64,000 nucleotides of DNA from Deltaproteobacteria bacterium (lineage in GTDB: Bacteria > Myxococcota > JACRCW01): contig JACRCW010000065.1 in assembly GCA_016218805.1 (NCBI GenBank), forward strand, positions 1 to 64,000, in the 5' to 3' direction. Position 1 is the stretch's first letter; every line of letters begins with the position of its first letter. A program made the position numbers and the translations under genes. Shown piece after piece: positions 48,871 through 64,000 of this stretch. The notes beneath the pieces are model-generated. The model saw only the letters and a program-made list of their open reading frames with translations. It ran no database searches and had not been told where the DNA came from.

Positions 48871-49632
48871 ATGATGCACATGACCGTGGTGGTTCTGCTG
48901 GGGTTGGGAATGCAGGACGCGGCCCGGCCGCCCAAGGGTGGGGCGGCCAAGGCGCCGGAGAAGGCCGCGCCGCTGTCCGTGGGCGAAGGCAAGGTCACGC
49001 AGACGCCGCTGGGACTGGACGCCGTGGACGAGCCCCGCAAGGCCGCGGAGGCCTACCTCAAGGCGTTGTCCGGCCAGGGCGACGACACCGCGCGCGACAC
49101 GCTGCTGGGCGGGGCCACGCTCAACGCCCGCCTGGAGACGCTGCCCAACTGGAAGATTGTTTCCCGTGAACCCGGCCAGGTGGAGCTGGGTGAACTGGCC
49201 GACGTGGCAACCAACATGGAGAACCTGGACAAGGAGGGCCGCATGGCGCTGGCCAAGATGCTGGGCGGCGGGCCCGCCTCGGATCCTGACGGGCTGTCCA
49301 TGCAGGAGCTGGACGCTGAGCAGGCGCAGCAGCTGCTGGCGCCCACCAAGGCGCGCGCCGCCGCGTTCCAGAAGAGCCACCCGGTGTTTGCCTACGTGGC
49401 CCGCGTGGACCGCGAGGTGTACTGGCACCCCAAAAACCCGGTGCGGAAGCTCATTGCGGATGCCGGCAGCAAGGGGCGCTACCAGCTGGATTTCCACCTG
49501 TTCAAGGTGGAGGTGCTGGAGGGCGCGCAAAAGAAGTCCCGCGTCTGGCCCCTGCGCCTGCTCCGCCTGCGCACGGACAAGCTGGACACCGGCTGGCGCG
49601 TGCTGCCCGCGTCAGATTGGAACGCGGAGTAG
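48871..49632 (+). CDS. Hypothetical secreted protein
   Basis: Signal-like N-terminus, host-like codon usage. Confidence 0.7.
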   Translation: MMHMTVVVLLGLGMQDAARPPKGGAAKAPEKAAPLSVGEGKVTQTPLGLDAVDEPRKAAEAYLKALSGQGDDTARDTLLGGATLNARLETLPNWKIVSREPGQVELGELADVATNMENLDKEGRMALAKMLGGGPASDPDGLSMQELDAEQAQQLLAPTKARAAAFQKSHPVFAYVARVDREVYWHPKNPVRKLIADAGSKGRYQLDFHLFKVEVLEGAQKKSRVWPLRLLRLRTDKLDTGWRVLPASDWNAE

Positions 49633-49636
49633 GCCC

Positions 49637-50332
49637 TCAGCCCGGCGTACCCGCGGGTGTGGTGGCGGGTGGAGTCGTGGAGGGGCCATCCACCAGGCTG
49701 GGCGGAACGTCCCCCTGCTCCACGCGCTTGCGCGTGAGCACCCGCGCCTCGTTCAGCGCCGCCAACCACTCCGCGCTGAGGTCCTCCACCGCCTTGCGCT
49801 GCGCCGGCTCAAGGAACAGGGACTGCTGCACCAGGATCTCCACGGAGTCGTCCGCGCGGTCCAACATCACGGTCAACTCCGCCCGGCACCTGCGGGTGTT
49901 GGTGCCGGCCAGCGCCGCCTCCGCCTTCTCCTTGGCCACGGTCTTTGATTCCGACTCCATGGCGGCCAGCGTGTTGACCGGGAAGTCCACCACCGCGGGC
50001 GCCAGACCCCGCCCCAGCAGCATCTCCTTCCGCATCTCCACCAGCGGTTTGATGTTCGCCAGGAACTCTTTGGCTTCCTTGGGCGACTCAACCTGCCCCA
50101 GGCCGTAGCCCGCCACCTTGAGCAGTTCGTCCCGGCGCGTCTTGTCCTTGGTGGAAAACGCCGTCCGCTCAATCACCCGCCGCCACGGGCCCAGCTTCTC
50201 CAGGTGCACCCCGGCCGCGGCCAGCGCCGCCGTGACTTTCGCTTCCTCCTTGAACTTGTCCCCCGGCGGTTTGCGTGCATTCAGTTGGCAGGAGGTGACC
50301 CATGGTGACGCGCGTCCCCATCCTCTTGTCAT
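49637..50332 (-). CDS. Hypothetical helical protein, start unclear (possibly 5'-truncated)
   Basis: Coding-like from about 50270 downward; N-terminus overlaps the RBS/start of the divergent gene. Confidence 0.5.
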   Translation of the reverse strand: MTRGWGRASPWVTSCQLNARKPPGDKFKEEAKVTAALAAAGVHLEKLGPWRRVIERTAFSTKDKTRRDELLKVAGYGLGQVESPKEAKEFLANIKPLVEMRKEMLLGRGLAPAVVDFPVNTLAAMESESKTVAKEKAEAALAGTNTRRCRAELTVMLDRADDSVEILVQQSLFLEPAQRKAVEDLSAEWLAALNEARVLTRKRVEQGDVPPSLVDGPSTTPPATTPAGTPG

Positions 50333-51063
50333 TGGCCGGCCTGCTGGGTCTCGCTGCGGGGTGCCGCGGTGACGCTGGAAGCGAGAAGTTGTTTCCGCCG
50401 CTTGAGCCTGCCGTGCTCGACTCGGCGAATTTCATTGCCTGGGTTTCGCTGGCAGACGCCGACGGAGAGGCTTGTCCGGAAGTGAGTTCCTGCCCGGCGG
50501 CAGCGGGTGTGCGGGTGGCGTATCATGTCGAGACCGCCGAGGTAGGGGCGAACTTCTCAGATGGCACCCTGGTCCTTCGGCCGGAGGCATGGCGCGCGGT
50601 GCGGGACTATGTCGGCGCGAACACCGTCCGAGGGCTTCTGCTCGCGGATGTCTACGACCCCGTGGGGACCTACTCGGTTTGCGGCTACACAGCCCCCGCG
50701 GCCAACTTCGCCTGGGTTCCAGAAGGGCGCCGTGCAGGGATGGGAGGTGCCTTGATGGTGGTTTCTCGAGACGGCGAGGGGGTCATTGGGTGGGACATGA
50801 TTCTAGCTATTTCCACCCGACCTGGATGGGACGTGGATGCGGTGGCCAAGCAGAACCATGAGGTCCTATCGATGGCAGAGGCCCACCAGGTCATTCGCGA
50901 CTCGCTGGCACGGGTACCCTCCCGTCCGGCGTGGACCAACTGGCAGCTGCAAGCGGGACAACTACCTGAACAACTCGCCCAACCCGCGGCCTGGTCCTAC
51001 CGATGTCTTGGCACCGGACCTGGGCAGGCGGCCAGCGGGGTGCAGCAGGATGGTGGCGGGTGA
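50302..51063 (+). CDS. Hypothetical lipoprotein
   Basis: GGAGG RBS; LAAGC lipobox; less GC-biased codons. Confidence 0.6.
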   Translation: MVTRVPILLSLAGLLGLAAGCRGDAGSEKLFPPLEPAVLDSANFIAWVSLADADGEACPEVSSCPAAAGVRVAYHVETAEVGANFSDGTLVLRPEAWRAVRDYVGANTVRGLLLADVYDPVGTYSVCGYTAPAANFAWVPEGRRAGMGGALMVVSRDGEGVIGWDMILAISTRPGWDVDAVAKQNHEVLSMAEAHQVIRDSLARVPSRPAWTNWQLQAGQLPEQLAQPAAWSYRCLGTGPGQAASGVQQDGGG

Positions 51064-51349
51064 GAACGGCGAACCGCGGCGCGCTGCGCTTTCCCCCGCG
51101 CGCCCAGGTTATCGGTGTCAACGTGCCTGAACCCCATGGCGGGGTGTCGCCCTGCGAACTGGGCCTCACCGGACGGCTTTCCGGGGGTCACCCGTGCCTG
51201 GTTCCGGGGGCTGGATGTAGGTGGGTGGAGTCACAGGTGGGGGTAGGCGGGGGTCACCGGCGGGGCTGTTGGGGGTCACCGCCCAGGCAAAAGGGGGTCA
51301 CCAGGTAGGTGGCGGGACCGCACCTGTAGGTGGAAGTGGGGGCACCAAG

Positions 51350-51480
51350 CCGTCGCCGGGGGTCACGGACGGGTCGCCGGGGGTCACGGAAGGGTCGCCG
51401 GGGGTCACGGAAGGGTCGCCGGGGGTCATGGATAGGGTCGCCGGGGGTCACGGAAGGGGCGCCTGGGGGCACGGATAGGG
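51350..51480. repeat. 21-bp tandem repeat (about GGGTCGCCGGGGGTCACGGAA), about 5-6 copies
   Basis: Adjacent near-identical units, with degenerate GGGGGTCAC copies upstream from about 51183. Confidence 0.85.
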
Positions 51481-52138
51481 TCCGGGGCGGTCACCGGGCG
51501 GTCGCCAGGGCCCACGGATGCCTCGCGCGGGGGCTGCGCTGCAGGAGGCACTCCTGCGGGGCGCTGGGCCTCGCGGGCTGGCCCAGGGGGCTGACGAATC
51601 CCGCGGCCGGTGGTTGCGGCCAGTGCCGCCCGGGTGACTATGGAGGGATTTCGGGCGCGCGCACGTACGGGCGGGCAGGGAGCCGGCACGCGACCTCCCC
51701 ATTGGGTCCGCAGAACAGGTCAAACCTTCACCACAGGCCCGTGGCACGCTGCTCCCAGCTCAGCCGGCAAGGCGACACAGGTGGTTCCGCCATCCAGGCT
51801 GGCCGTGCAATCGCTGGCGGCCGCGTTGCACGGGAGGTCCACGGGCGAGCAGGGTTCCCCGACTGTAGGTCGCGCGACGCATCGCCGCGTGCCCCCTTCG
51901 CTCGCGCACAACATCGTCGTCAGGCCGTTTCAGGCACCAGCGCCGCGCCATAAAGTCGATCTGACCCATTGTGTCGCACTGGTCCCAACCGCTGGCGGCC
52001 CCTCGTTGGTCAGTCTGTTTCTGTGGGAGTCGCGTTGAAGCCGAGGCGCCCTTGCGACCGCACAGACAAACGGAAGACTCAAGAATCTGCAGATGTGCCG
52101 ACGCGGAATGTGTAGGTCGGTTGCGTAGCCACGGCCGG

Positions 52139-52158
52139 ACCCCCCCGATCGGGGGGGT
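52139..52158. promoter_or_regulatory. 20-bp palindromic operator-like box, copy 1
   Basis: ACCCCCCCGATCGGGGGGGT, perfect; upstream of kinase ATG 52227. Confidence 0.8.
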
Positions 52159-52226
52159 GTAGAGGGGAACCGTTCCGGTACCCTGCCCGGCCCGCCCTCG
52201 GGCTGGAGCGGGCGGAGGGGTACGCC

Positions 52227-53174
52227 ATGGAGGAGACGCCTTCTCTTCAGATTGGCAGCGGCGCGCACCAGGGGAGTGGCCTCCGGCACGCGCTGTGGGT
52301 GTCCGGTGCGTACCTGGTGGCGGCCCTCAGCTATGCCTGGGTGGCGGCGTGGTGGGCCAGTGCCACCGCCCGGACCGCGCCGGAGCGCGGAGGGCTGGAG
52401 CGGGGAGCGGTGCTCGCATGGGTGGTGGTGACCAGTGGGCTGCTATTGGGGTTGCTGTTGCGCCACCACCGCGGCCGCCAGCGTGATGCGGCCCTGCTGG
52501 CGCGCATGGAGCGGGCGGTGATGGTCAACGAGCAGCGCGCGCTGGCGGGGGTGATGGCCGCGTCCACGGCGCATGATGCGAACAACGCGATGACCGTGCT
52601 GCTTGCCGACCTGACAGGCAGCCCGGACGACCCGGATGCCGGGGAACGGCGCGCGGAAGCGCTGGCGTGCGGCCAACGCATCATGGAGATCCTACGCCGC
52701 CTGGCGGTCACCCAGGGCGCCGGCGGTGATGAGGCGCGGAGCGTGGACCTGGGACGCCTGGTGCAGGAAGCAGTGGATGCCGCACGGCGTCACCCGGGCG
52801 TAGGGGACTGCCAGGTGCGCGTGGTGGGAAGCCTGGACGCGCCGGTGGACGCCGTTCCCGCACTGGTGCACCAGATGGTGGCCAACCTGGTCATCAACGC
52901 GGGTGAAGCCACCGGCGGCGCGGGGACCATTGAGGTCCGCCTGCAGCCGGGTCCGGACGGTGCGCATCTGGAAGTGCATGACGATGGACCGGGAGTGCCC
53001 ATGGAGCGCCGGCAGACGCTGTTCTCCAGCATGCTCACCACCAAGCCGGACGGCACGGGGCTGGGCCTGTTCTCGGTCCGGGTCTGCGCCCAGGTGCACG
53101 GCGGCCGCGTGGACGTGGGCGACTCCGACCTGGGCGGCGCGTGTTTTCGGGTGCTGTTGCCGCAGCGCCGGTGA
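52227..53174 (+). CDS. Membrane sensor histidine kinase
   Basis: Two TMs, AHDANN H-box, NLVINA, DDGPG, TTKPDGTGLGL. Confidence 0.92.
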   Translation: MEETPSLQIGSGAHQGSGLRHALWVSGAYLVAALSYAWVAAWWASATARTAPERGGLERGAVLAWVVVTSGLLLGLLLRHHRGRQRDAALLARMERAVMVNEQRALAGVMAASTAHDANNAMTVLLADLTGSPDDPDAGERRAEALACGQRIMEILRRLAVTQGAGGDEARSVDLGRLVQEAVDAARRHPGVGDCQVRVVGSLDAPVDAVPALVHQMVANLVINAGEATGGAGTIEVRLQPGPDGAHLEVHDDGPGVPMERRQTLFSSMLTTKPDGTGLGLFSVRVCAQVHGGRVDVGDSDLGGACFRVLLPQRR

Positions 53175-53196
53175 GCCCCCGGCAGCCGTGGCGGCT

Positions 53197-54213
53197 TCAG
53201 CTGCCGGTGGGCCGCGGCACGTGTTCCCCGGCCAGGGCGCGCGCCAACTCAACCCGGTTGGACACCTCCAGGCTGGTGTACACCTCGCGCAGGTACCACC
53301 GGACCGTGTTGCGCGTGAGCCGCACCGCGTCGGCAATTTCGCGGATGGACATCCCAGCCGCTGCAAGCTCCGCCACTTCCCGCTGGGAACGGGGCAGGGC
53401 GGCCTCCGGACGGCGGCGCACCGCGGCCGCATGCCCCAGGCGCGCCAGGTAACGGACGCCACCGGGTCCGTCCAGCCGCACCATCCGCACCAGGGCCTGG
53501 CGCAGCGCCAACACCCCTTCCTGTTCGGCGCCCTGGTCCATGGCCCGCGCGTTCTTCTCCAGCAGCACGCGCAACTCCGGCCACTGCAGCCAGGCGCGCG
53601 CGCTTTCTGACGCCGACTCCACGCTCCCATCCGGCAGCAACATCACAAACGCGGGGGCCCCGGTGACCTCCCCGCGCGCCAGCGCGTCCGCCGCGCACAG
53701 GGCGCTCACGGCCCCTTCCACCAACGGGTCAAGCTGGCGGCGGTCCTCCCGTCCAAACCGCGGTGCCCCACGCCGGCGTACCCCACCCAGCCAGCCCACA
53801 AACTGGTTGCCGCAGTACACCAGCAGGCGCAATTGGTCCGCCAGGCCGTGCGGCGCGTAGATCCTGCGGAACACGGGACTCTGTTCAATCTCGTCGCGCA
53901 GCCCCATGGCGGACCATTCCACAAAGGACCGGGTGGACCGGGGTTCAGGCGTCTGCAGGTTGAGAAAGCTCTCGCCCGGCCAGGGGGCGCGGGCCAGCGG
54001 GGACATGATCCGGTCCACCAGCCCGTCATCACCGTCCGCCTGCCATTCAGACAGGTGCGTCTTCCCGTCCACGTCAGCCAACGAATAGAACAATGAGAAA
54101 TCCATCCCGGCGACGGTCCGGATGGCGGTCAGCACCTCGGCACGGATGGCGCGGGCGTCCGTTCCGTGCAGCGTCTTCAGGCGCCGGCCAACCTTCGCGG
54201 GACTGCATTCCAT
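53197..54213 (-). CDS. LuxR-family HTH regulator with N-terminal GAF/autoinducer-binding-like domain
   Basis: LPRSQREVAELAAAGMSIREIA..TRNTVRWYLREVYTSLEVSNRVEL; start MECSPAK. Confidence 0.88.
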   Translation of the reverse strand: MECSPAKVGRRLKTLHGTDARAIRAEVLTAIRTVAGMDFSLFYSLADVDGKTHLSEWQADGDDGLVDRIMSPLARAPWPGESFLNLQTPEPRSTRSFVEWSAMGLRDEIEQSPVFRRIYAPHGLADQLRLLVYCGNQFVGWLGGVRRRGAPRFGREDRRQLDPLVEGAVSALCAADALARGEVTGAPAFVMLLPDGSVESASESARAWLQWPELRVLLEKNARAMDQGAEQEGVLALRQALVRMVRLDGPGGVRYLARLGHAAAVRRRPEAALPRSQREVAELAAAGMSIREIADAVRLTRNTVRWYLREVYTSLEVSNRVELARALAGEHVPRPTGS

Positions 54214-54278
54214 GCGACACGCTCCTGGGGCGGACCGGGATGCTAGCGGGCGCGTGCTCGCGCGCCCAACCACGCCGG

Positions 54279-54298
54279 ACCCCCCCGATCGGGGGGGT
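54279..54298. promoter_or_regulatory. 20-bp palindromic operator-like box, copy 2
   Basis: ACCCCCCCGATCGGGGGGGT in the divergent luxR / luxI-like intergenic region. Confidence 0.82.
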
Positions 54299-54350
54299 GA
54301 CACATCACATACCGCCACCTACCTGTCGCCGCCTTTCCAGGAGGCACCTC

Positions 54351-55112
54351 TTGAACAACTTGCGACTCATCACGATTGACGGTTTCTACCCGTGCGCGGA
54401 ATCCGCCCTGGCGCGCCAGCTGATGGGCGGGCTGGTGCAGCTGCGTCAGCGCGGCTACGGCGCAGACTACCCCAGCAACTACCTGCCGTTGGACGCGTCC
54501 GACTTTGTCTGCACCCAGCACCTGTTTGTGCGGGAGGACGCGCTGGAACCCGTGGCCGGCTGGCGCGAAGTGTCCTTGCACCGGTGCCGCCAACACGGCC
54601 TGGAACTGCCGCTGCTGCGCACGGTCCGCGAGTCCGGCAGCCCCGACCACGCCGCCGCGCTGCAGGAGCTGGTGGATGCGGCGGACGCCCGCGGCGCTGA
54701 CGTGGTGTACGCGTCCGGGTTCACCGTCCCCAAGGCGCTGCGCGGGCCGGATGCGGTGTCCGGCACCGTCAAGGAACTGGTGGCCGCCATGCACGCGGCG
54801 GATGCCCCGCACCATGAGGGCACCGTGCGCGTGACAGGAAGCGTGCCCCGGTTCCGTGTTTGTACTCTTTACGCATCCATGGGCTACCACCCCATGCGGC
54901 GCGCCGGCGTGGAGCTGCCTCCCTTCCACAAGGCCTCCGCCGGCGGCGAGCCGGTGCGCCTGCTCCAATACACTGGCGTCACCGACTGGAGCCGCCAGTG
55001 CCTGGCGCGCCACCGTGACGTGCTGGCCACGCGCCTGGTGGTGCGCGGCCGTCCCCCGTTCCAACCCACACCGTCCACCAAGGAGATCCCCCACCATGTC
55101 CTACGTTCTTGA
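54351..55112 (+). CDS. Putative LuxI/N-acyltransferase-like (GNAT-fold) protein
   Basis: TTG start with AGGAGG RBS; QLRQRGY, LPLDASDF..H, AGWR, VYASGFTV, LYASMGY echo the LuxI motif order. Confidence 0.55.
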   Translation: MNNLRLITIDGFYPCAESALARQLMGGLVQLRQRGYGADYPSNYLPLDASDFVCTQHLFVREDALEPVAGWREVSLHRCRQHGLELPLLRTVRESGSPDHAAALQELVDAADARGADVVYASGFTVPKALRGPDAVSGTVKELVAAMHAADAPHHEGTVRVTGSVPRFRVCTLYASMGYHPMRRAGVELPPFHKASAGGEPVRLLQYTGVTDWSRQCLARHRDVLATRLVVRGRPPFQPTPSTKEIPHHVLRS

Positions 55113-55896
55113 AGCCTCTGCAGAGTTTGACCGCCTGGAGCGCCAGGCCGCGCTCCCCGGCTATGACTTCCACCGGGAATTGGCACTTGCCGGCGTATCC
55201 CCCCGGCCCGGGCACGCCATCCTGGATGCGGGCTGCGGCTCCGGCGTGGTCACGCGCCACCTGGCCCGCAGCCACCCGCAGTGCACCGTGACCGGCTGTG
55301 ACCTGGGCGCTGACCGGTTGGCCAGCGCCGCGCGCCTGGCGCGCGACATCCCCAACATCACCTTCTCCCACCAGGACCTGGCCCGGCTGGATTTCCCGGC
55401 GGAGTCCTTTGACCTGGTGTTCTGCCGCTATGTGCTGCAGCACGTGTCGCCGGAGGGCCGTGCGTCTGCGGTGGCCGAGTTCAAGCGCTGCCTGCGGCCG
55501 GGCGGCAAGGCCTGCCTGGTGGACTTTGACGGTACTTTGTACAACCTACACCCCCAGACGCCGCTGCTTTCCCACCTGCTGGGCCGGCTGGAACGCGAAT
55601 TCCCGGTGGACCTGCGCATTGGCCGCAAGCTGCCGGCCATGCTGGTGGACGCGGGCTTCTCCAACGTCCGCTGGCGCATTGACACGGTGGAATGCACCGG
55701 CCCCCGCCTGGAGGAGGAGGTGGGCCTCACCGAGGAGCGGCTCACCCACGCGCTGGAACCGCTCGCTGTGTTCTTTGGCAGCCGGGCGGTCGCCTGCCAG
55801 TTCCGGGACGAGTACCTGGCGGCGCTCCAGGTGGACGGCGCGGTGCTGTTCTACAACAAGTTCGTCGTGACGGGCGTGAACGAGCGCCCCTGCTGA
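55096..55896 (+). CDS. Class I SAM-dependent methyltransferase
   Basis: ILDAGCGSG, GCDLG, FDLVFCRYVLQH, LRPGG; AAGGAG RBS. Confidence 0.92.
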   Translation: MSYVLEASAEFDRLERQAALPGYDFHRELALAGVSPRPGHAILDAGCGSGVVTRHLARSHPQCTVTGCDLGADRLASAARLARDIPNITFSHQDLARLDFPAESFDLVFCRYVLQHVSPEGRASAVAEFKRCLRPGGKACLVDFDGTLYNLHPQTPLLSHLLGRLEREFPVDLRIGRKLPAMLVDAGFSNVRWRIDTVECTGPRLEEEVGLTEERLTHALEPLAVFFGSRAVACQFRDEYLAALQVDGAVLFYNKFVVTGVNERPC

Positions 55897-55959
55897 CGGA
55901 CGCACTGGCGCCTTGACAGCGTCCGCGGCTTTCGCGACACCCACGTCGCGAGGGCTGTC

Positions 55960-56724
55960 ATGTTTTTCCGCGAGTTGAACGCCGCCGCACCCCGAACCAT
56001 CGTCCTTGTGCATGGCCAGCTGTTTGATGGAGCGGTCTTTGACGGCGTGACGGCCACACTGGCGGGGCAGTTCCGTGTGCTGGTGCCGGACCTCCCCGGC
56101 TATGGCCGGTCGCCCCTGGACGGGGCGGCCGGCGTGGCGGATGTCCAGGACCGGCTCGGCCGCGAATTGCGCGCGCGCGTGAAGGGGCCGCTGGTGCTGG
56201 TTGGGTTTTCGCTGGGCGCCTACCACGCGCTGGCCCTGCTCACCCGCGGCCTGCTGGCGCCCGCCGGGCTGGCGCTGCTGGCGCCGGTGGTGGGCCTGTC
56301 CGACGACAAACGCGCACAGTTCCGGCAGAACCTGGCCGCGTGCCAGGCCGCGCCCGGCGCGGTGGCCGACGTCATTGCCTCCATCATGCATGCTCCCGCC
56401 TTCCTGGCGGGCCGGCCGGACCGTGCGGCGGCCACGCGGGCGCGTTTCACCGCCACCGCCATGGACACCATCACCTGGGACCTGCAGGCCGCGCTGGATA
56501 TGCCGGATCTGTCCCCACAACTGGGGTCGGTGGCGGTCCCGGTGCTGGTCCGCGTGGGAGCCTTGGACCAGGCGGTCCCGCCAGCATTGGGCCGCGCCAT
56601 CGCCGCGGCGCTGCCCCATGCCCAACTCCGTGAATGTGCGGGCGTGGGCCACCTGCAGATGATTGAAGACCCGGCGGGCCTGGCGGAGGACCTCAGCCGG
56701 TTTGCCGGCAGCGTGCTGCCGTAG
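55960..56724 (+). CDS. Alpha/beta hydrolase
   Basis: VHG, DLPGYG, GFSLG nucleophile elbow, GALD, GH. Confidence 0.92.
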   Translation: MFFRELNAAAPRTIVLVHGQLFDGAVFDGVTATLAGQFRVLVPDLPGYGRSPLDGAAGVADVQDRLGRELRARVKGPLVLVGFSLGAYHALALLTRGLLAPAGLALLAPVVGLSDDKRAQFRQNLAACQAAPGAVADVIASIMHAPAFLAGRPDRAAATRARFTATAMDTITWDLQAALDMPDLSPQLGSVAVPVLVRVGALDQAVPPALGRAIAAALPHAQLRECAGVGHLQMIEDPAGLAEDLSRFAGSVLP

Positions 56725-56726
56725 GG

Positions 56727-57272
56727 TCAGGGACCCGTCTGCGGCGGGACGTACTCGGTCACGCGCAGGCGGAACACCTCGCCGCGGACCTCGCGGGTGT
56801 TGGCCCACCCCGCCACATACAGCCCGTCGTAGGGCGTGTCGCGCTCGGGGAGCAGGACCACGCAGTCCTCATCCTGGCCCGCGGCCTGGCGGCAGCCGCC
56901 CAACACCGTCTGCCCGTTGAGGCCGGTCCCCTCCGCGTTGAGCACGCCCAGGCGGAAGTCCAGGTCCTCCGCCTCCGTGCCGCTTTCGAAGTGCACCTGG
57001 AGCCGCCAGCGGCAGCCCGCGGGCGTGGGCGAACTGGCGCACCCGGCGGCCGGAAAGGTGTCCGGCACCTTCCACCACAGCGTCCCCACGCCGGACATGC
57101 GGCAGTAGCTGCCCACCTGTTCCACATTGAGCTCCAGGCCCACCGCCTCCGCAGGGGAGCGGTTGAGGGGTGCCTGCTCACACGGGTCCACCACGCTGCC
57201 GGAGTCCCGCGCACCGCCGGGAAACGCGGAGCACGCGCCCAACAGCGCCAACATCGGGGCTGGCCATCGCAT
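56727..57272 (-). CDS. Hypothetical lipoprotein
   Basis: MRWPAPMLALLGAC lipobox. Confidence 0.6.
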   Translation of the reverse strand: MRWPAPMLALLGACSAFPGGARDSGSVVDPCEQAPLNRSPAEAVGLELNVEQVGSYCRMSGVGTLWWKVPDTFPAAGCASSPTPAGCRWRLQVHFESGTEAEDLDFRLGVLNAEGTGLNGQTVLGGCRQAAGQDEDCVVLLPERDTPYDGLYVAGWANTREVRGEVFRLRVTEYVPPQTGP

Positions 57273-57370
57273 GCCGCCGTTCTTGCCCCCGCCCGTCCCG
57301 GTGCGCAAGGGGTGCGTCGGCGCGTGGCCCGGTGGAGCCCACTCCACCGGAGGACCGAGAAATCGCTCCG

Positions 57371-57390
57371 ACCCCCCCGTTCGGGGGGTT
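57371..57390. promoter_or_regulatory. 20-bp palindromic operator-like box, copy 3 (two changes)
   Basis: ACCCCCCCGTTCGGGGGGTT between the divergent lipoprotein and terpene synthase genes. Confidence 0.75.
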
Positions 57391-57468
57391 ACGGCGAATT
57401 GGGCAGACCTTCTAGCTTGCGCACATCCCGAGAACCGCACGTTGCGGCTCCACCACGAGGTCCACGCC

Positions 57469-58572
57469 ATGCACGCCCACCATCATGGCCAGCAACTCCG
57501 GATCGCCTCTGCCAATGAGGCGCGCGCCTTGCCCACATTGGATTCGCCGCGTTTCCAGGCGTGGGTGCCGGAACACTGGCGCTGCCCGGTACGCCGCAAC
57601 CCGCACGCCGCGGCCGTGGAGGCCGCCGTGCTTTCCTGGTTCTTTGACCTGGGGTGTTCTCCGGCAGAACTGGCCCGTGCGCGGAAGTTTGACGCGGCCG
57701 GCTACGTGGGGATGCCCTTTCCGCTGCTCTCCAAACACCACGCGCTGCGCATCGGGAAGTACCTGTCTTTGTGGCTGTTGTGGGATGACGTTCACGTGGA
57801 GAACCTGGAGAACCGCTGGCGGTTGACCAGCGCGCACCTCCTCTCCAACGTCCGGCCGCCGCACATGACCCGGTTTGATGAGGGATGGTGGCAGCTGTTC
57901 CAGGAATTCGCCGCGGAGCGCAGCCCCCGCTGGTTGGATGCCCTGTGCGCAGCCATGACCGCGTGGAGCATTGCCGCCGTGGATGAGGCGCTGATGGTCC
58001 GCCGCTTCCGTGAACTGGGCGAAGTGCCGTCCTTTGAGCACCAACTGCAGGTGCGCATCGCCACCATTGGGATGTTCGCCACCGTGTACCTGCTCGAGGA
58101 CGGCTATGGCTACGAACTGCCCGTGGACTTTCACGCGCATCCCACCGTGCAGCGCATGACGGTGCTCGCCAACCAGATTGTCGGGCTGGGCAATGACCTT
58201 CTCAGCTGCGCCAAGGACATTGTGGAGGGCCAGCTCAATCTGGTCACCACGCTGATGCACGAGCGCGCCCTGGGTCCAGCCGCGGCGCTGGAGACCGTCA
58301 TCCAACTGCATGACGAGTCACTTCAGGAATACGACCAGCTTGCCGCCACGCTGGGCACCTGGTCCCCGGCGGCGGACCCGTACATTGCACGGTGGGTCCA
58401 GGACGTGCGGTACGCATCCCTGGGCTTCACGCTGTGGGAGGCGCAGGCGCCGCGATATTCCGCGCACCGTCTCGTTGTAGATGGCGCCGTGGTGGAGCCC
58501 TCCTTCCTGTTTGTGCCGGTCTTGGGGAGCGGCACAGCCGCGCCCCCGGACCCCCCTCCCCGTATCCACTGA
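57469..58572 (+). CDS. Class I terpene synthase
   Basis: WDDVHVE (DDxxxE), RIATIG effector triad, NDLLSCAKD (NSE), WEAQAPRY (WxxxxxRY); GAGG RBS. Confidence 0.9.
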   Translation: MHAHHHGQQLRIASANEARALPTLDSPRFQAWVPEHWRCPVRRNPHAAAVEAAVLSWFFDLGCSPAELARARKFDAAGYVGMPFPLLSKHHALRIGKYLSLWLLWDDVHVENLENRWRLTSAHLLSNVRPPHMTRFDEGWWQLFQEFAAERSPRWLDALCAAMTAWSIAAVDEALMVRRFRELGEVPSFEHQLQVRIATIGMFATVYLLEDGYGYELPVDFHAHPTVQRMTVLANQIVGLGNDLLSCAKDIVEGQLNLVTTLMHERALGPAAALETVIQLHDESLQEYDQLAATLGTWSPAADPYIARWVQDVRYASLGFTLWEAQAPRYSAHRLVVDGAVVEPSFLFVPVLGSGTAAPPDPPPRIH

Positions 58573-58612
58573 GCCGTCCCGCGCCTTCCCGCCAGCAGTC
58601 CCGGAGTCCTCC

Positions 58613-59002
58613 ATGACCCTCACGATCAGCCAGCACGGCAGCTTTTTGGATGTTGTTGTCAGTGACACCCTCACCTCTGATGACGTGGCCGACCTGCTGC
58701 GCGCTTTGGACACGCAACGCCTCAACGGCCCGTTTGTGATCCTCACGGACACCAGCGGCATGAAGGCTGCGCCGCGCCCGGTGGTCATGTCCTTTGTGGA
58801 AGGCATGAAGAACCGCCCGCCGCTCAAGGACATCTGGCTGGCGGATGCGGTCGTGGTGAACTCGCCCGCTGCGCGGTTTGTGCTGTCAACCTTGCTGATG
58901 ATTGCGCCAATGCCCACGCAAGTGAAGGCATTTGACAAGCGCGCGGATGCCGAACACTGGCTCACTGACGTGCTCCGCCATGCCCAGCTGAAATCCGCCT
59001 GA
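58613..59002 (+). CDS. STAS/SEC14 (SpoIIAA-like) small protein
   Basis: PFVILTDTSG..AVVVNSPAARF..KAFDKRADAEHWL. Confidence 0.8.
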   Translation: MTLTISQHGSFLDVVVSDTLTSDDVADLLRALDTQRLNGPFVILTDTSGMKAAPRPVVMSFVEGMKNRPPLKDIWLADAVVVNSPAARFVLSTLLMIAPMPTQVKAFDKRADAEHWLTDVLRHAQLKSA

Positions 59003-59192
59003 ACATGCGCAGCAAGGGAAGTTCCTTCCAGACAAAGGACTAATCGCGCCTACTTGGTGCGCCTCCGCGGCTCTGATTTGCCCCCTGAGCGTCACCGGCA
59101 GACGGGGGCCGCCTCGGCGTGACGGTGTGTCGCGCGTTTGGCGAAGTGTCCAAGTCCACGTCGCGAGTGCACGCAGTTGACGGTGGCCAAGC

Positions 59193-59747
59193 CTACTCGC
59201 GCAGATACCGCTGGACAGCCTGTCTGGACACGCCCAGCAAGCGGGCCGCTCGGCTTCGGTTCATGCGGCGCTCGCCGAGCGCTGCTTCCATCATCTCACG
59301 TCGAAGTAGGTCAGTGGCCTGCGGGATCGAGACGTGGCCAAGGAGAGCCCGGCCGAGTTCGCGGATCTGGCCGCGGCGGTCTCGTTGGGCCGCAAGAATC
59401 GCCTCCAGTCCCGCCGTTGTCAGAGGACGCCAGGCCGTCCGGTGGAGAAGGACCGGCCCTTCCTTTCTGTACCTACGAACCGCAACAACAAGTTGCGCCG
59501 CGTGAAGCGGAAAAACATCGCCTGGGGCCACACATGGGTCATCAAGGGTGTCCCAGCACACCAGGTCCGCCAAGGCAGACGTCCCCCGCGGGGAGACGGT
59601 GATGCAGGTATCGGTGGCGGTACATCGCAGGGGACCGACCAGCTGCTCCCAAAGGAGGAGGCGAACTTGAGGGGCAGCGATCCAGACGGAAAACCGGCGC
59701 TCGCTTGCTGTGTTTGGAGCCGTTTCTGCCAAGCACTCCTGCGTCAT
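59193..59747 (-). CDS. Fis-type HTH regulator without AAA+ domain
   Basis: C-terminal EAALGERRMNRSRAARLLGVSRQAV; start MTQECL. Confidence 0.7.
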   Translation of the reverse strand: MTQECLAETAPNTASERRFSVWIAAPQVRLLLWEQLVGPLRCTATDTCITVSPRGTSALADLVCWDTLDDPCVAPGDVFPLHAAQLVVAVRRYRKEGPVLLHRTAWRPLTTAGLEAILAAQRDRRGQIRELGRALLGHVSIPQATDLLRREMMEAALGERRMNRSRAARLLGVSRQAVQRYLRE

Positions 59748-59807
59748 TGTCCCACCGCCAGCATGTTTGTTGACGCGCTTTGATAGCGTCACGCCGGATG
59801 CAGGCGC

Positions 59808-59827
59808 ACCCCCCCGATCGGGGGGGT
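59808..59827. promoter_or_regulatory. 20-bp palindromic operator-like box, copy 4
   Basis: ACCCCCCCGATCGGGGGGGT upstream of the minus-strand Fis-HTH gene. Confidence 0.8.
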
Positions 59828-59915
59828 TTTTCTGGAATTCCACGACCACGCAGAGAAGGCCCCCACAGGTGGCGGCAGCAAGCACCAGCCCCCAGGCGGC
59901 GCATGTTCCTCAGAA

Positions 59916-60563
59916 TCACGAAGCCCCCACGCGGTCGTTGCGTGTGCGTTCGCGCTGAGCCTGGAGCCGAGAGAAGCACTCCTTGAGGCCCTCCTTCAAA
60001 GAACGGAGCGTAGGCACATCACCGATGTCCACGCCGCTTTGGACAAGCGTCTGGGCGATCTCCGGGCTGATGCCGGTGACAACGCAATAGGATCCCAGCA
60101 GCCGGGCCGACCGGACCATCTTGATGAAATGGTCCGCGGTCATGGTGTCCACCACGCTCACGCCTGTGATGTCGATGATCACGCACTTGGCCCGCGTCTC
60201 CACGATGCGGTGCAGCAGCTTCTCGGTCATCTCGACAGAGCGCTGCGTGTCCACGACCCCCACGACCGGCAAGGTCAGGATGTCGTCCCACAGGTCGATG
60301 ATGGGGGTCGAGAGGTCCCGAATGGCGAGTTGTTGGCTTTCGATAAGGCGCAGCTGTTCAGCTTGTCTCTTGCGCACCTCCTGGGCCTGCTGCAGTTCGC
60401 TGAGGAAGACGCTTAGCGTGGCCTCAAGCTGTCCAAAGTCATCCTCTTCGTGGTGGGCCAACAATGCGGCGGCCTGCTCAATGGCGTCGACTGACGCAAA
60501 GGAGAGCACCTGCATTACGCGTGTGAGGCGCTCGGTGCTGATGGTGATCGTTGCTGCGGTCAT
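59916..60563 (-). CDS. rsbR: RsbR-like STAS protein
   Basis: LSTPII..LPVVGVVDTQRS..IIDITGVSVVDT..TGISPEIAQTLV. Confidence 0.88.
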   Translation of the reverse strand: MTAATITISTERLTRVMQVLSFASVDAIEQAAALLAHHEEDDFGQLEATLSVFLSELQQAQEVRKRQAEQLRLIESQQLAIRDLSTPIIDLWDDILTLPVVGVVDTQRSVEMTEKLLHRIVETRAKCVIIDITGVSVVDTMTADHFIKMVRSARLLGSYCVVTGISPEIAQTLVQSGVDIGDVPTLRSLKEGLKECFSRLQAQRERTRNDRVGAS

Positions 60564-60609
60564 GCCGTGGATCCTATGGGAAAGGGGGAACTTGGGTCCG
60601 ATGAAGCGC

Positions 60610-61023
60610 TCAGATGGCGGCGGCGCAGGTCTCGCGGCGGTTGGCGATCCATGCCCGCGCGTCGGGTTCGGTGGGGAAGAACTCGCCAGGGTTGTCCCGT
60701 CGGGTGACGAGGTTGACCGCGTTGAAGATCAGCGTCATGACGACCCTGGTCTGGAAGTTCGCGCCAAAGAACGCCATTCCGCGGTAGGGGATGTTCTCGG
60801 TGGCCTTGGCGGCGATTTTTCGCGCCTCGGGGGGCACGGTGCCCAGCCGGCTGATACTCGCCAGGAAGAAGACAAACGGCTTCCCCGACGAGAACCGGAA
60901 GATGTGCCGGTTCAGCTCAGCTGCCTCTTCGGGCGAGAGGTCTCCCACCATCTCAACGCTGACGATGTCCGGGTCCTCGAGGCTCACCATGTGACGACCG
61001 ACTTGATGCGACGCTATGGCCAT
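60610..61023 (-). CDS. STAS/SEC14 domain protein
   Basis: PPEARK..FFGANFQTRV..FFPTEPDARAWI. Confidence 0.82.
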   Translation of the reverse strand: MAIASHQVGRHMVSLEDPDIVSVEMVGDLSPEEAAELNRHIFRFSSGKPFVFFLASISRLGTVPPEARKIAAKATENIPYRGMAFFGANFQTRVVMTLIFNAVNLVTRRDNPGEFFPTEPDARAWIANRRETCAAAI

Positions 61024-61057
61024 GTCGTGTTTCCTTGTTCGTGTGGGTGGTGAAGGG

Positions 61058-61516
61058 TCAGGCGGGCTGGTCCGACTCACGTGCGCGGTGGTCACGTTCC
61101 AGGAGTGCGTCCAGCAGCTCCCAAGCCTTCGCGGACTCGTCAATGCGCGTGGCGTGAATGCCAAGGTGCTCGAGCGCGTCCTCGAGGCTGTGAGCGGAAT
61201 CCAGGTTCTCCAATTCGATGCCCATGGCCTGGAGGGTCATGGCCACCTCCGCGCCCATGCCGCAGAGCACACAGCGAGCACCCATCAACCGGACCGCGGC
61301 GGCGAGGCGCGCGAGTACGGAGCAGAGGTGGCTGTCCATGACGCGCAGGCCGGACGCGTCGATGGCAAGGCCGCGCGCGCCTGTGCGGCGCAGCGTGTGG
61401 AGTACGTTGTGGGTGAGCTGCACGGCGTCGCTGTCGGAAAGCTCGCGTTGCAGGACGACGAGGAGCTGGCCCCAGAGAAGGATCACTGGGACCGCGTCAT
61501 TGTCATGCTTCCTCAT
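61058..61516 (-). CDS. rsbS: RsbS-like STAS protein
   Basis: VPVI..LQRELSD..IDASGLRVMDS..RLMGA..VAMTL. Confidence 0.85.
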   Translation of the reverse strand: MRKHDNDAVPVILLWGQLLVVLQRELSDSDAVQLTHNVLHTLRRTGARGLAIDASGLRVMDSHLCSVLARLAAAVRLMGARCVLCGMGAEVAMTLQAMGIELENLDSAHSLEDALEHLGIHATRIDESAKAWELLDALLERDHRARESDQPA

Positions 61517-61519
61517 CCC

Positions 61520-62086
61520 TCAACCCCCCAGGTCGGCCACCATCACGGTGGCATCGTCAAATGGACTGGCATGGCGCTCCAGCAGGAGGGCGCACGCCTC
61601 GGCGGCGCTTCGGCCAGCGAGTGCGTCCAGCGTGAAGCGGCGGGAGATCCCGTCGGAAAAGAGCACCAAGCGATGTCCCGGCATCACTTCTCCGTCGAAG
61701 ACGTTCAAGCGCGGCCAGCGCGAGCCAAGTATCCCCGCCGACAGTCGGATTGGCAGTGAAGGCCCCGCGCACCGCAACTCCACGTTCCCGACACCGGCGC
61801 CCTCCATCCGCCAGTTCTTCAGCACGCAGACCAGCGCAGCAGCGCCACGTGTTCCCCGAAGGCTGTTGTGGAGTCCGGCAAGGATGGACTCCACGCCATG
61901 GTTGAGGGGTATTTCCTTGAGGGATGCCACGATGGACGCAGTGACCGCGGCGGCGTTCGGCCCGTGCCCCAGCGCATCCACGACTGCGAGCAGAACACTG
62001 CCGCCGTCATGGCGGACGAATGCAGCATCCCCGTTGGCTTGCTCACCCGGGCATGGGCGGGTCCGGTGCTCGACGACCACCTTCAT
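61520..62086 (-). CDS. RsbX-like PP2C/SpoIIE phosphatase
   Basis: NGDA, VVDALGHG, RGAA, GVGNV, FSDGI, DDATV. Confidence 0.88.
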   Translation of the reverse strand: MKVVVEHRTRPCPGEQANGDAAFVRHDGGSVLLAVVDALGHGPNAAAVTASIVASLKEIPLNHGVESILAGLHNSLRGTRGAAALVCVLKNWRMEGAGVGNVELRCAGPSLPIRLSAGILGSRWPRLNVFDGEVMPGHRLVLFSDGISRRFTLDALAGRSAAEACALLLERHASPFDDATVMVADLGG

Positions 62087-62715
62087 AGCGACAACTCCGC
62101 TTCCACGCGGGTGCCGGCTGCGCCGGTCTTGATGTCGAAGTTGTTGGACAGGCGCTTGGCACCGAGGATCCCGCGGCCCATGCCGGTCTTGCTGCGATAG
62201 TTGCCGGTCAGTATCTCCTCAAGATTGGGGATGCCGCCGCCCTGATCGGTCGCGGTGATCCGCAAGCGCAGGGGCCGCAAAGACGTCAATTCCAGCCGCA
62301 CCTTCCCTCCCAGGGTGTAGTTGACAATGTTCCGCGCCAATTCGCTGACGAGCGTCATGGCCTTCTGGGTGCTGAGGCTCCCGGCGCCCGCCGATTCGCA
62401 CATGGACAGCACGTCCGATCGGACCTGGAGGATGCCGTTCTCGTCCCGCACATCCCTGGTCACCGGAGGAAGATTGGCGGGTCCATCCTGCAGGCGGCGC
62501 AACGCCTGCAGCATTGGCTCACGCGCTGCCTCCGGGGCGAACAGGCGCACGCCAGCCTCCAGTTGCCCAACCATCCGCGGCAGATCGGCTGGAGTGGCCG
62601 GCCGGTCCGTCGGTATGCCGGCCTTCTCCCTCGCCCGGCCGATCATGCCCTTCGCCGTGGGGACGGAGAGATGCCGGGTGAGGATAGCCAGGAGTTGTTG
62701 CTCGAATTGTTCCAT
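62083..62715 (-). CDS. RsbT-like serine kinase with extra N-terminal helical domain
   Basis: SELARNIVNY, DQGGGI, SKTGMGRGILGAKRL; start MEQFEQQ. Confidence 0.88.
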   Translation of the reverse strand: MEQFEQQLLAILTRHLSVPTAKGMIGRAREKAGIPTDRPATPADLPRMVGQLEAGVRLFAPEAAREPMLQALRRLQDGPANLPPVTRDVRDENGILQVRSDVLSMCESAGAGSLSTQKAMTLVSELARNIVNYTLGGKVRLELTSLRPLRLRITATDQGGGIPNLEEILTGNYRSKTGMGRGILGAKRLSNNFDIKTGAAGTRVEAELSL

Positions 62716-62994
62716 GCCAGCCCGTCCGCAGGCGGCGAAGCTCTTCATCCCCGCCGCGCTGCGATGTCGAAGCTATCAGCGCTATCACGACGAAAGATAG
62801 ATGAACGCCCGTTCCCGCAACGTACGTTGCGCCACACATTTCCAGCGGCTTTCTCCTGCATGGGCTCATCCCCGACGACAAAATATGACGTGGTTCGAAA
62901 CAACGCGCTGGTGCCAATGCCCAAGTCAGGCACGCTGCCATGACGACACCAAGGTTGACCGGTCCCAAGACGCAGGCAGAGCATCCGTTCCGTC

Positions 62995-63438
62995 ATGCAG
63001 CCGCCGCCACCCAGCGTCGTGTCGACCATTTCCATTGAGCACGTGACGGACGCAGTGGTGGCGGCGTCAGGAGCGCTCCGCCAGGCACTCGCGCAACGCG
63101 CGTCGACGGCGGTTGCGCACGCATTTGCGATCGCGGTGCGCGAGCTGGCCACAAACATTCAGCGTCACGGCGGGGGAGGGGAGGTGCAGCTGGGGATGGC
63201 GCCGGGTCTGCTCTGGGTGCGCGCGCTGGACCGCGGCCCCGGCATAGCGGATGTTGAGTCGGCGCTGCGGGACCATTGGTCGGCGGGCCGCCCACGTCCT
63301 CTGGGAGTGGCGCCCACTGACGGCCTGGGCTGTGGTCTGGGCGCGGTCCGCCGGCTCATGGATGGACTGGAGCTTCATGCGCGTGACGGGGGCGGCCTCG
63401 AGGTGACGGCGTGGAAGCGCATTGTGGGGCCGCGGTGA
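62995..63438 (+). CDS. Second RsbT-like ATP-binding anti-sigma/kinase
   Basis: ELATNIQRHGGGG, DRGPGI, GLGCGLGAVRRLMD. Confidence 0.85.
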   Translation: MQPPPPSVVSTISIEHVTDAVVAASGALRQALAQRASTAVAHAFAIAVRELATNIQRHGGGGEVQLGMAPGLLWVRALDRGPGIADVESALRDHWSAGRPRPLGVAPTDGLGCGLGAVRRLMDGLELHARDGGGLEVTAWKRIVGPR

Positions 63439-63555
63439 TGAGCGCCGCGGCGCGCAGCGGCTGGAGTTGCCATGCGACGGCGGGCGGCGGCTCGTCCCAC
63501 CGGAACATCCTTCTTCAGTATGCCGCGCCGTGTGGCGCCCTTCAGCGGATCACGC

Positions 63556-63999
63556 TCATTGGTGGCAGACTCTTCCGTGGTACTCGCCCACGCCACCCGC
63601 GGCGAAGTCGTACGTTCCGGTTGTGAGCAGCGAGCCGCTCGCGCCGGCGAAATCCTCCGTCCCGCCGGTGATTGTGAAGATCTCGGCGAATTCTCCGTCA
63701 CCGGCGGTGTGGAACGCGCCGCTGTCCTTGAAGAAGAGGTCCCCCCTCCGCTCGCCAGCCCTCGCCCCGAGCACCGTGTCACCAGTGATCAGCACCACCC
63801 CGGTGATTGGCGTCTCGTCGGTGAACGTGATGGTCTGCAACAAGGAGAAGTAGTCACCGCGAATACCCCCGCGGAAGGTTCCGCGCCCGCACACGCCAAT
63901 GGGCGAGGTGCATTCGGGTCCTCCTACCGGGATGAGATCAAAGTGTCCCTCAACGGCATGGCACTTCCCATGCGCCTCCGCGCCAGCACCCGACGACAC
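63556..63999 (-). CDS. Allene-oxide-cyclase/dirigent-like beta-barrel protein (5' end runs off the window)
   Basis: ITGGTEDFAGASG motif; ORF open at the window edge. Confidence 0.55.
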   Translation of the reverse strand: MSSGAGAEAHGKCHAVEGHFDLIPVGGPECTSPIGVCGRGTFRGGIRGDYFSLLQTITFTDETPITGVVLITGDTVLGARAGERRGDLFFKDSGAFHTAGDGEFAEIFTITGGTEDFAGASGSLLTTGTYDFAAGGVGEYHGRVCHQ

Positions 64000-64000
64000 C

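Follow-up and report, generated by a model that had tools for sequence, protein, structure and literature searches.

A 20-bp palindrome predicted to serve as a LuxR-type activator site beside an acyltransferase operon in an uncultured myxobacterial genome

Introduction

Does a short palindrome that recurs in front of several genes of one genome mark the operator of a quorum-sensing-like circuit, when the regulator and the synthase-like enzyme beside it resemble LuxR and LuxI only in part? The question is raised by positions 1 to 64,000 of contig JACRCW010000065.1 (assembly GCA_016218805.1), from a Deltaproteobacteria bacterium of the phylum Myxococcota. In this stretch of 64,000 nucleotides, hereafter the window, a 20-bp dyad (the box) lies between a LuxR-type regulator gene (luxR, 53197-54213) and a synthase-like operon, and further copies precede genes for a histidine kinase, a terpene synthase and a Fis-type helix-turn-helix (HTH) protein. 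A first-pass annotation had taken these copies for the sites of a local LuxR-type regulon. From the copy census and the promoter geometry described below, we predict with high confidence that the box is an activator site at promoters; as to which protein binds it, and whether that protein responds to the product of the operon, progressively less certain answers are offered.

Results

A scan of the window recovers the dyad exactly at 52139, 54279 and 59808 and with two mismatches at 57371, reproducing all four positions of the first-pass annotation, and there is no other match in the window at up to three mismatches (0.03 expected), in agreement with its remark that none was present in the first 50 kb. 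Not one of 100 shuffles reached four copies. The gaps from box to start codon are 68 nt for the kinase, 52 nt for the synthase-like gene, 65 nt for luxR, 78 nt for the terpene synthase, 98 nt for a divergent lipoprotein-like gene and 60 nt for the Fis-HTH gene, so that the placement originally described, at about 50-100 nt before start codons, is borne out by measured gaps of 52-98 nt. An assembly slip at the boxes is unlikely, since contigs of one sequencing run match 51492-57621 and 58738-60200 with zero differences; as this DNA may itself derive from that run, the match does not constitute independent support. The boxes and the putative -10 elements discussed below are as follows.

52139..52158, + strand: box 1, exact 20-bp dyad; promoter directed at the kinase gene
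52179..52184, + strand: TACCCT, putative -10-like hexamer, 30.5 bp from the box 1 centre
54240..54245, - strand: TAGCAT, possible luxR -10, 43.5 bp from the box 2 centre
54279..54298, + strand: box 2, exact; separates luxR from the synthase-like operon, with the promoter directed at the synthase
54320..54325, + strand: TACCTG, putative -10-like hexamer, 31.5 bp from the box 2 centre
57371..57390, + strand: box 3, two changes; promoter directed at the terpene synthase, box and gene recurring as a duplicate at contig position 64542
57413..57418, + strand: TAGCTT, putative -10-like hexamer, 32.5 bp from the box 3 centre
59780..59785, - strand: TATCAA, putative -10-like hexamer, 32.5 bp from the box 4 centre
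59808..59827, - strand: box 4, exact; faces the Fis-HTH gene, + strand also fits a terminator pattern

The genome (6.43 Mb, 70% G+C, 170 contigs, 92% complete) is present in groundwater metagenome runs of a single study, and its protein relatives, one of them named as Polyangiaceae, point to a lineage within the Myxococcota. A genome-wide census at up to three mismatches finds 12 copies (five exact, two with one mismatch, four with two and one with three), which score 26.7-31.9 against a position weight matrix, whereas the next-best site in the genome scores 15.1; given this gap, the box is a discrete, sharply defined class of site. Six of the 12 copies fall within a 12.4-kb island on the window's contig (the four in the window and two at contig positions 64249 and 64542), while the other six lie singly on the contigs C8, C23, C31, C33, C73 and C108. 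The motif scan that had been proposed as a check thus finds a discrete class upstream of genes, but one that is not confined to the island, and the regulon may be called local with respect to half of its copies.

The box carries a directional signature as well. A TA dinucleotide lies 21-23 nt past the box, on one side only, in 11 of the 12 copies, at 30.5 bp (one copy), 31.5 bp (seven) or 32.5 bp (three) from the dyad centre. TA is infrequent in this sequence: the 24 flanks of 60 nt contain 13 other TA, such that 0.7 occurrences would be expected where 11 are seen (Poisson 2.5e-10), and the spacing is kept in nine of ten copies after the two duplicated promoters are removed. As the 21-23 nt interval was chosen after viewing the data, the weight rests on controls: the spacing is found in 0 of 41 other C6/G6 hairpins of the genome, and in none of the five exact copies retrieved from an all-species collection, all of them singletons in unrelated genomes. 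The TA side faces an open reading frame (ORF) start approximately 35-180 nt away in all 11 cases, a weak point when taken alone, as ORFs are common at this G+C content. With the -10 hexamer taken to begin at -12, the TA spacing would place the box centre at -42.5 to -44.5 relative to the start site. The lux box is given in PMC7585371 as 20 nt long and 42.5 nt upstream of the start, and in PMC10491235 as overlapping the -35 element. The -35 regions of the box promoters are weak; at box 2, a -35-like hexamer, GTGACA, overlaps the end of the dyad.

A palindrome built of C and G runs could also be a short inert element, whether repeat, hairpin or terminator, of REP-like type or descended from the 22-bp tandem arrays, and could have been carried to its sites with inserted DNA. 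The genome does contain many C6/G6 hairpin repeats, on C108 the box opens a 22-bp array whose other units are degenerate look-alikes in the same register, two pairs of copies arose by segment duplication, and the copy at 59808 fits a terminator pattern. However, the box has a fixed length and a self-complementary centre where the repeat families have variable loops, its flanks are unrelated except in the duplicate pairs, a T-rich tail is present in one of 24 orientations, an Rfam scan of 49000-64000 gave no match, and the TA spacing of 11 in 12 copies against 0 in 41 hairpins separates the two groups. Related arrays elsewhere do not have a terminal TA at this distance. The REP-like scatter that the first-pass annotation had named as the outcome which would count against a regulon is not seen; instead there are 12 copies with a fixed centre and an upstream placement. 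We consider an inert repeat very improbable. The duplicate pairs comprise 57371/64542, a terpene synthase cassette of 84% identity whose homology starts at the box, and C23/C31.

Approximately 40 sites of the genome, several of them at contig ends, belong to two families of REP-like hairpins whose stems are C6/G6 and whose loops vary. Genus g113 has many copies (13-21) of the reversed form, G6/C6. Tandem arrays of 22-bp units with C-runs and G-runs are located at the following positions.

C108:3324-3543
C163:42456-42721
C128:1-224
C162:26323-26493

The possibility that these are promoter arrays was considered and is unsupported: the C108 array alone ends in a box with TA, and on C42 the TA lies inside the repeat. 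The C108 array may be a source of the box or may supply extra weak sites, and the C7/G7 box itself may have arisen from the 22-bp tandem repeats of this lineage.

The genes of the region are listed here, as the direction of the promoters determines which of them can be counted as targets.

52227..53174, + strand: membrane histidine kinase-like gene; HATPase_c, H-box-like and G-box motifs
53197..54213, - strand: LuxR-type regulator, 338 aa; GAF-like N-terminal part, probable PAS-like middle, GerE HTH
54351..55112, + strand: predicted LuxI/FeeM-fold GNAT acyltransferase, 253 aa; family without a Pfam model, putative TTG start
55096..55896, + strand: class I S-adenosylmethionine methyltransferase; overlaps the synthase gene
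55960..56724, + strand: alpha/beta hydrolase, enol-lactonase-like; GxSxG present
56727..57272, - strand: lipoprotein-like gene; lies on the side of box 3 away from the promoter
57469..58572, + strand: class I terpene synthase; NSE-like and WxxxxxRY motifs, variant DDxxD
58613..59002, + strand: SpoIIAA-like gene, duplicated together with the terpene synthase
59193..59747, - strand: orphan gene for a Fis-type HTH protein; target of a box and alternative candidate as its binder
59916..63438, no strand assigned: stressosome-like genes (RsbR, SpoIIAA-like, RsbS, SpoIIE phosphatase, two RsbT-like kinases) without a box of their own
63556..64000, - strand: secreted protein with its start at contig position 64068; faced by the fifth island box at contig position 64249

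The boxes face the kinase, the synthase operon, both terpene synthases, the Fis-HTH gene and the secreted protein. On the luxR side of box 2 the TAGCAT lies outside the box geometry, and on the lipoprotein side of box 3 there is no TA within 45 nt. Since the geometry points one way at each box, the target list of the first-pass annotation is retained for the kinase, the synthase operon, the terpene synthase and the Fis-HTH gene, but luxR and the divergent lipoprotein gene lie on the far side and appear not to be activated from the box in the same manner. A hairpin precedes the hydrolase gene, and its co-transcription with the operon is uncertain. Among the five unlinked targets, the four that were scanned have no Pfam match, and four of the five would be secreted or lipoprotein-like as judged by their N-termini.

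Several features of the unlinked sites were recorded in passing. The C31 target (C31:1-260, - strand) looks like a second copy of the C23 secreted-protein gene (C23:1-2336, - strand), either with an internal deletion or as an assembly variant; the two genes are cut off at contig ends having 229 bp in common, and the signal-peptide region contains a short repeat of 5 bases. The C73 target (C73:21108-22061, - strand) opens with a short receiver-like stretch that is in frame with a lipoprotein-like gene, as might result from an insertion into a former response-regulator gene. Proteins of 170-260 aa that are orphans and probably helical, with no Pfam match in those scanned, recur beside box sites, which suggests shared insertion hot spots.

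Window 49637-50332
C19:66186-66962
C31:731-1435
C33:40591-41268
C73:22236-22991
C108:2746-3261

At the left edge of the island, the intergenic DNA of window 51157-51521 is rich in repeats and includes a 21-bp tandem array; a segment on C159 matches this stretch at 90% identity and one on C67 at 81%.

Outside this genome the box is rare. At up to one mismatch it occurs in none of 60 genomes of relatives, ten chosen genomes yielded two single hits, each at three mismatches, and a looser 18-mer at three mismatches gave fewer hits than its reversed control in five genomes of g113 and so carries no information. The viral contigs searched contain no box. A degenerate core, of which there are 11 copies in this genome, was sought in 400 genomes of the phylum: ten have one copy and none has more. 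Among the genomes searched, the motif thus appears to be particular to this one, and the pairing of regulator, synthase and box is absent from every other locus examined. The 16-bp core sequence had no match in a paper library whose coverage leaves out most subscription journals and supplements. Separately, a 12-mer after box 2 (window 54297-54308) recurs identically at another locus (L030), upstream of position 6657 and of a LuxR relative that precedes a sigma54-activator-like gene; it is possibly a relic operator, or chance.

One of the ten singleton look-alikes, at locus L060, has the geometry of the box: a gene for a 364-aa GerE-HTH protein starts 67 nt downstream of it, and the TA is 32.5 bp from its centre; the remaining nine do not have the TA spacing. 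The GerE-HTH family of this gene (G367) is widespread in family f11 (41 of 121 genomes), and 30 of its loci, the best hits of 30 of the 41 matching genomes, served as a calibration set. At L080-L108, 16-bp dyads of another sequence, with TACC/GGTA arms, precede the matched genes; at 26 loci the dyad scores at least 6/8, and in 19 of the 26 a TA lies at 31.5-32.5 bp, toward the regulator gene in 13 and on the far side in six. The arm pattern was picked by eye from the same sequences and several loci are close kin, such that this is a calibration and not a clean statistic. GerE-HTH genes in the phylum do adjoin dyads with the same spacing as the boxes here, and the f11 dyads, whose inner bases differ from paralog to paralog, are likely operators for autoregulation or for divergent targets. 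Taken together with the promoter geometry, the sequence comparison makes the box very probably a LuxR-HTH activator site.

As to the protein that binds it, the island regulator has a GerE HTH match over cut-off (PF00196, E 4.2e-9), and no match to the classical receptor domain Autoind_bind (PF03472) at E up to 0.01, nor was one found at this gene in the genome-wide search. The profile of its subfamily matches TraR, LasR, SdiA, QscR and CviR solely in the HTH, and its structure neighbours in the Atlas are GAF-LuxR proteins. The genome has nine GerE matches, of which one, an ECF-like sigma factor, was dropped; among the eight kept, the island gene alone has a dyad of this geometry within 500 nt upstream, and that dyad is the box. 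We therefore predict, at somewhat better than even confidence, and a little more firmly once the activator site is granted, that the binder is the GAF-type LuxR of the island. The earlier reading of the box as the site of a LuxR dimer is upheld by the geometry, with the island LuxR as best candidate, but the regulator has no match to the classical receptor domain.

It is also conceivable that the box is an activator site bound by another GerE-HTH protein, by one whose gene is missing from the assembly or by an autoregulated Fis-HTH protein (59193-59747), with the island LuxR as a bystander. Half of the copies are far from the island, a box faces the Fis-HTH gene as boxes face autoregulated activators, six other GerE genes are likewise without a close ortholog among the nine GerE loci of a relative, and relatives of the island LuxR do not have the box. 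Yet the geometry fits GerE-family dyads, the look-alike with this geometry at L060 adjoins a GerE gene, no other GerE gene of the genome has such an upstream dyad, and the Fis-HTH protein, an orphan, gave no match to a receiver domain. For the NarL-type gene that lies 2.5 kb from the C8 box, a same-family genome that has no box at all contains an 88% identical ortholog. We regard another binder as unlikely, while giving it appreciably more weight than an inert repeat.

The synthase-like protein (54351-55112) has no Pfam or NCBIfam match. A full HMMER search places it in a family that comprises 420 clusters at 50% identity, most of them Bdellovibrionota-like, unlike a word-index protein search, which returned no relatives. 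None of 141 aligned members matches the LuxI (PF00765), FeeM or GNAT model, the genome has no PF00765 match at E up to 1, and the family profile has no real match by sequence in the PDB. A structure modelled from the family alignment reached a predicted local distance difference test (pLDDT) score of 92.9 (31 for a single-sequence model). This model superposes on RpaI with Z 14.6 (root-mean-square deviation 3.5, 195 residues aligned) and on FeeM (2g0b) with Z 14.4 (2.9, 173 aligned, 11% identity), followed by LasI (13.4) and a generic GNAT protein (13.1). Foldseek ranks generic GNATs first, EsaI third and FeeM ninth, and the nearest named cluster in the Atlas is the N-acyltyrosine synthase family, at a template modelling (TM) score of 0.75 (FeeM-type matches 0.63-0.75). 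The catalytic pattern of LuxI consists of an N-terminal R..F/Y, DxxD, R and S-R-F. In the family, K/R32, Y/F36, D48, D51 and R/K72 are conserved, but R at 123 is present in just seven of 141 members. The modelled fold assigns the protein to the extended GNAT acyltransferases of the LuxI/FeeM group; the label LuxI-like of the first-pass annotation thus holds at the level of the fold, but there is no PF00765 match and the fold is equally close to FeeM.

A search of metagenome loci for synthase homologs confirmed one of 145 candidates. At this locus (L032:3432-9934) the homolog lies near a 39%-identical homolog of the window methyltransferase and an acyl-CoA dehydrogenase, these two forming an operon convergent to it, with two HTH-like (XRE-type) regulator genes upstream of it and no LuxR among the ORFs listed. 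Because this locus pairs both homologs, a biosynthetic unit of synthase and methyltransferase is plausible. Three further homologs, found in three of 300 genomes, have no LuxR or methyltransferase homolog nearby.

The layout invites the reading of a classical acyl-homoserine lactone (AHL) pair, in which 54351-55112 would make an AHL or aryl-homoserine lactone, 53197-54213 would sense it and the hydrolase would be a lactonase. In favor of this are the divergent regulator-box-synthase arrangement with its 20-bp box, the best fold match to RpaI together with that to LasI, the resemblance of the hydrolase to enol-lactonases and the working LuxI enzymes of myxobacteria described in PMC7862692. Nevertheless, the whole genome has no Autoind_bind or Autoind_synth match over cut-off, the regulator meets the solved quorum-sensing receptors in the HTH alone, and FeeM ties with RpaI while the nearest named Atlas family makes N-acyltyrosine. 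A linked methyltransferase, moreover, is not known to have a role in AHL synthesis, which we also count against this reading. An AHL pair is in our estimation quite improbable, if slightly less so than the inert repeat.

The terpene synthase has relatives of 52-56% identity in few genomes. Two of these (L041:6892-12954 and L042:7116-13152) are fused to an N-terminal HMG-CoA reductase and flanked by RsbS, RsbT, phosphatase and RsbR-like genes and by a secreted protein 58-62% identical to that at window 63556; neither genome has the box. The terpene synthase, stressosome and secreted protein (window 57469-64000) thus appear to be a conserved module, one that predates the box and, it seems, came under box control in this lineage. 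A literature search combining stressosome, terpene synthase and myxobacteria, under the coverage stated above, returned nothing.

Discussion

Several observations weigh against a LuxR-dependent circuit at these boxes. With regard to the promoters, the C33 copy does not have TA at the spacing, just five of the 11 hexamers fit TAnnnT, and a strict consensus sigma70 scan of 51500-60500 returned zero promoters, a result that is expected for activator-dependent promoters and is not proof of them. With regard to the binder, the nearest relatives of the island LuxR (ten loci, in eight of 300 genomes) have no box, their best sites having 6-8 mismatches, and three wider loci of such relatives have no synthase homolog; in addition, an assembly that is 92% complete could be missing the true binder. 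A general use of the box by the G367 family was rejected, as 29 of 30 calibration loci do not have it and do no better than shuffles, and that family aligns with the island LuxR weakly, in the HTH. Finally, none of the four synthase-homolog loci has a LuxR-type gene among the ORFs listed. The recognition helices of the relatives of the island LuxR are TVRTH-like against TVRWY, a difference that could explain another site in those relatives.

If the island LuxR is the binder, its dimer would occupy the dyad centred about 43 bp before the start, adjoining the -35, and would recruit sigma70-type RNA polymerase to otherwise weak promoters (class II activation), while luxR would be read from its own promoter in the opposite direction. 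A small ligand in the GAF-like domain would trigger the regulator, which would then switch on the acyltransferase-methyltransferase(-hydrolase) operon, the kinase, the two terpene synthase cassettes, the Fis-HTH gene, the secreted protein and five unlinked genes, mostly for secreted proteins or lipoproteins. The product of the operon would probably be an N-acylated, perhaps methylated, amino-acid-type molecule. The weakest link is the closing of a feedback loop, in which this product would itself be the ligand: nothing beyond the layout of luxR, box and synthase and the hydrolase encoded alongside speaks for it, and we hold it to be doubtful, and still short of an even chance if all the rest is granted. 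Equally doubtful is the complete autoinduction circuit, in which the LuxI/FeeM-fold enzyme and the methyltransferase would make a non-AHL N-acyl signal, and a GAF-type LuxR sensing it would turn on its own synthase, the degrading hydrolase, terpene production and the scattered secreted proteins. By its domain content this does not appear to be classical AHL quorum sensing; of the quorum-sensing-like circuit originally proposed, what stands is a probable activator-site regulon beside a synthase-fold gene, whereas its LuxR and LuxI have no match to the classical domains PF03472 and PF00765, respectively.

The locus joins a candidate enzyme, a candidate receptor and a precise operator in one place, which makes a large synthase family with no annotation open to a first assay of product and ligand in E. 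coli, with no need to grow the organism itself. The locus is also relevant to a gap noted in PMC7862692, namely how acyl signals could be perceived by myxobacteria in which LuxR receptors are not recognisable. Its weight is limited by the fact that the circuit is seen in one uncultured genome.

Comparison with known systems

The logic of the module is a known one, that of a LuxR-type activator with a dyad at -43 and an adjacent acyltransferase, while both proteins appear by sequence to lie outside the defined receptor and synthase families. With the LuxR/LuxI system of the Vibrio fischeri type it shares the 20-bp dyad about 42.5 bp upstream of the start (PMC7585371), divergent regulator and synthase genes, a GerE-type HTH and the same synthase fold. 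Unlike that system, the box here has arms made of C7/G7 runs, the sensor part of the regulator is longer, of GAF type and without a PF03472 match, and the synthase, for which PF00765 gives no match, is coupled to both a methyltransferase and a hydrolase.

GAF-LuxR regulators of the BagY/FevT type control a metabolite gene cluster. Their model (NF041232) is the best NCBIfam hit of the regulator (E 1.3e-10, N-terminal region included), but at a score of 40.7 against a cut-off of 700 the regulator is not a member.

The FeeM/NasY N-acyl amino acid synthases and the stieleriacine cluster likewise combine a GNAT fold with a clustered methyltransferase, which accompanies an N-acyl tyrosine synthase, and their products are proposed to act between cells (PMC7293339). 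In contrast to these, the synthase family described here has 11% identity to FeeM and no Pfam matches in its 141 members, and the gene stands under a box beside a LuxR-type gene. The solo LuxI proteins AgpI and VitI are signal-synthase-fold enzymes from the same phylum, which PMC7862692 describes as recognisable LuxI without an adjacent receptor, whereas in the present genome an enzyme of another family is accompanied by an adjacent regulator and a regulon.

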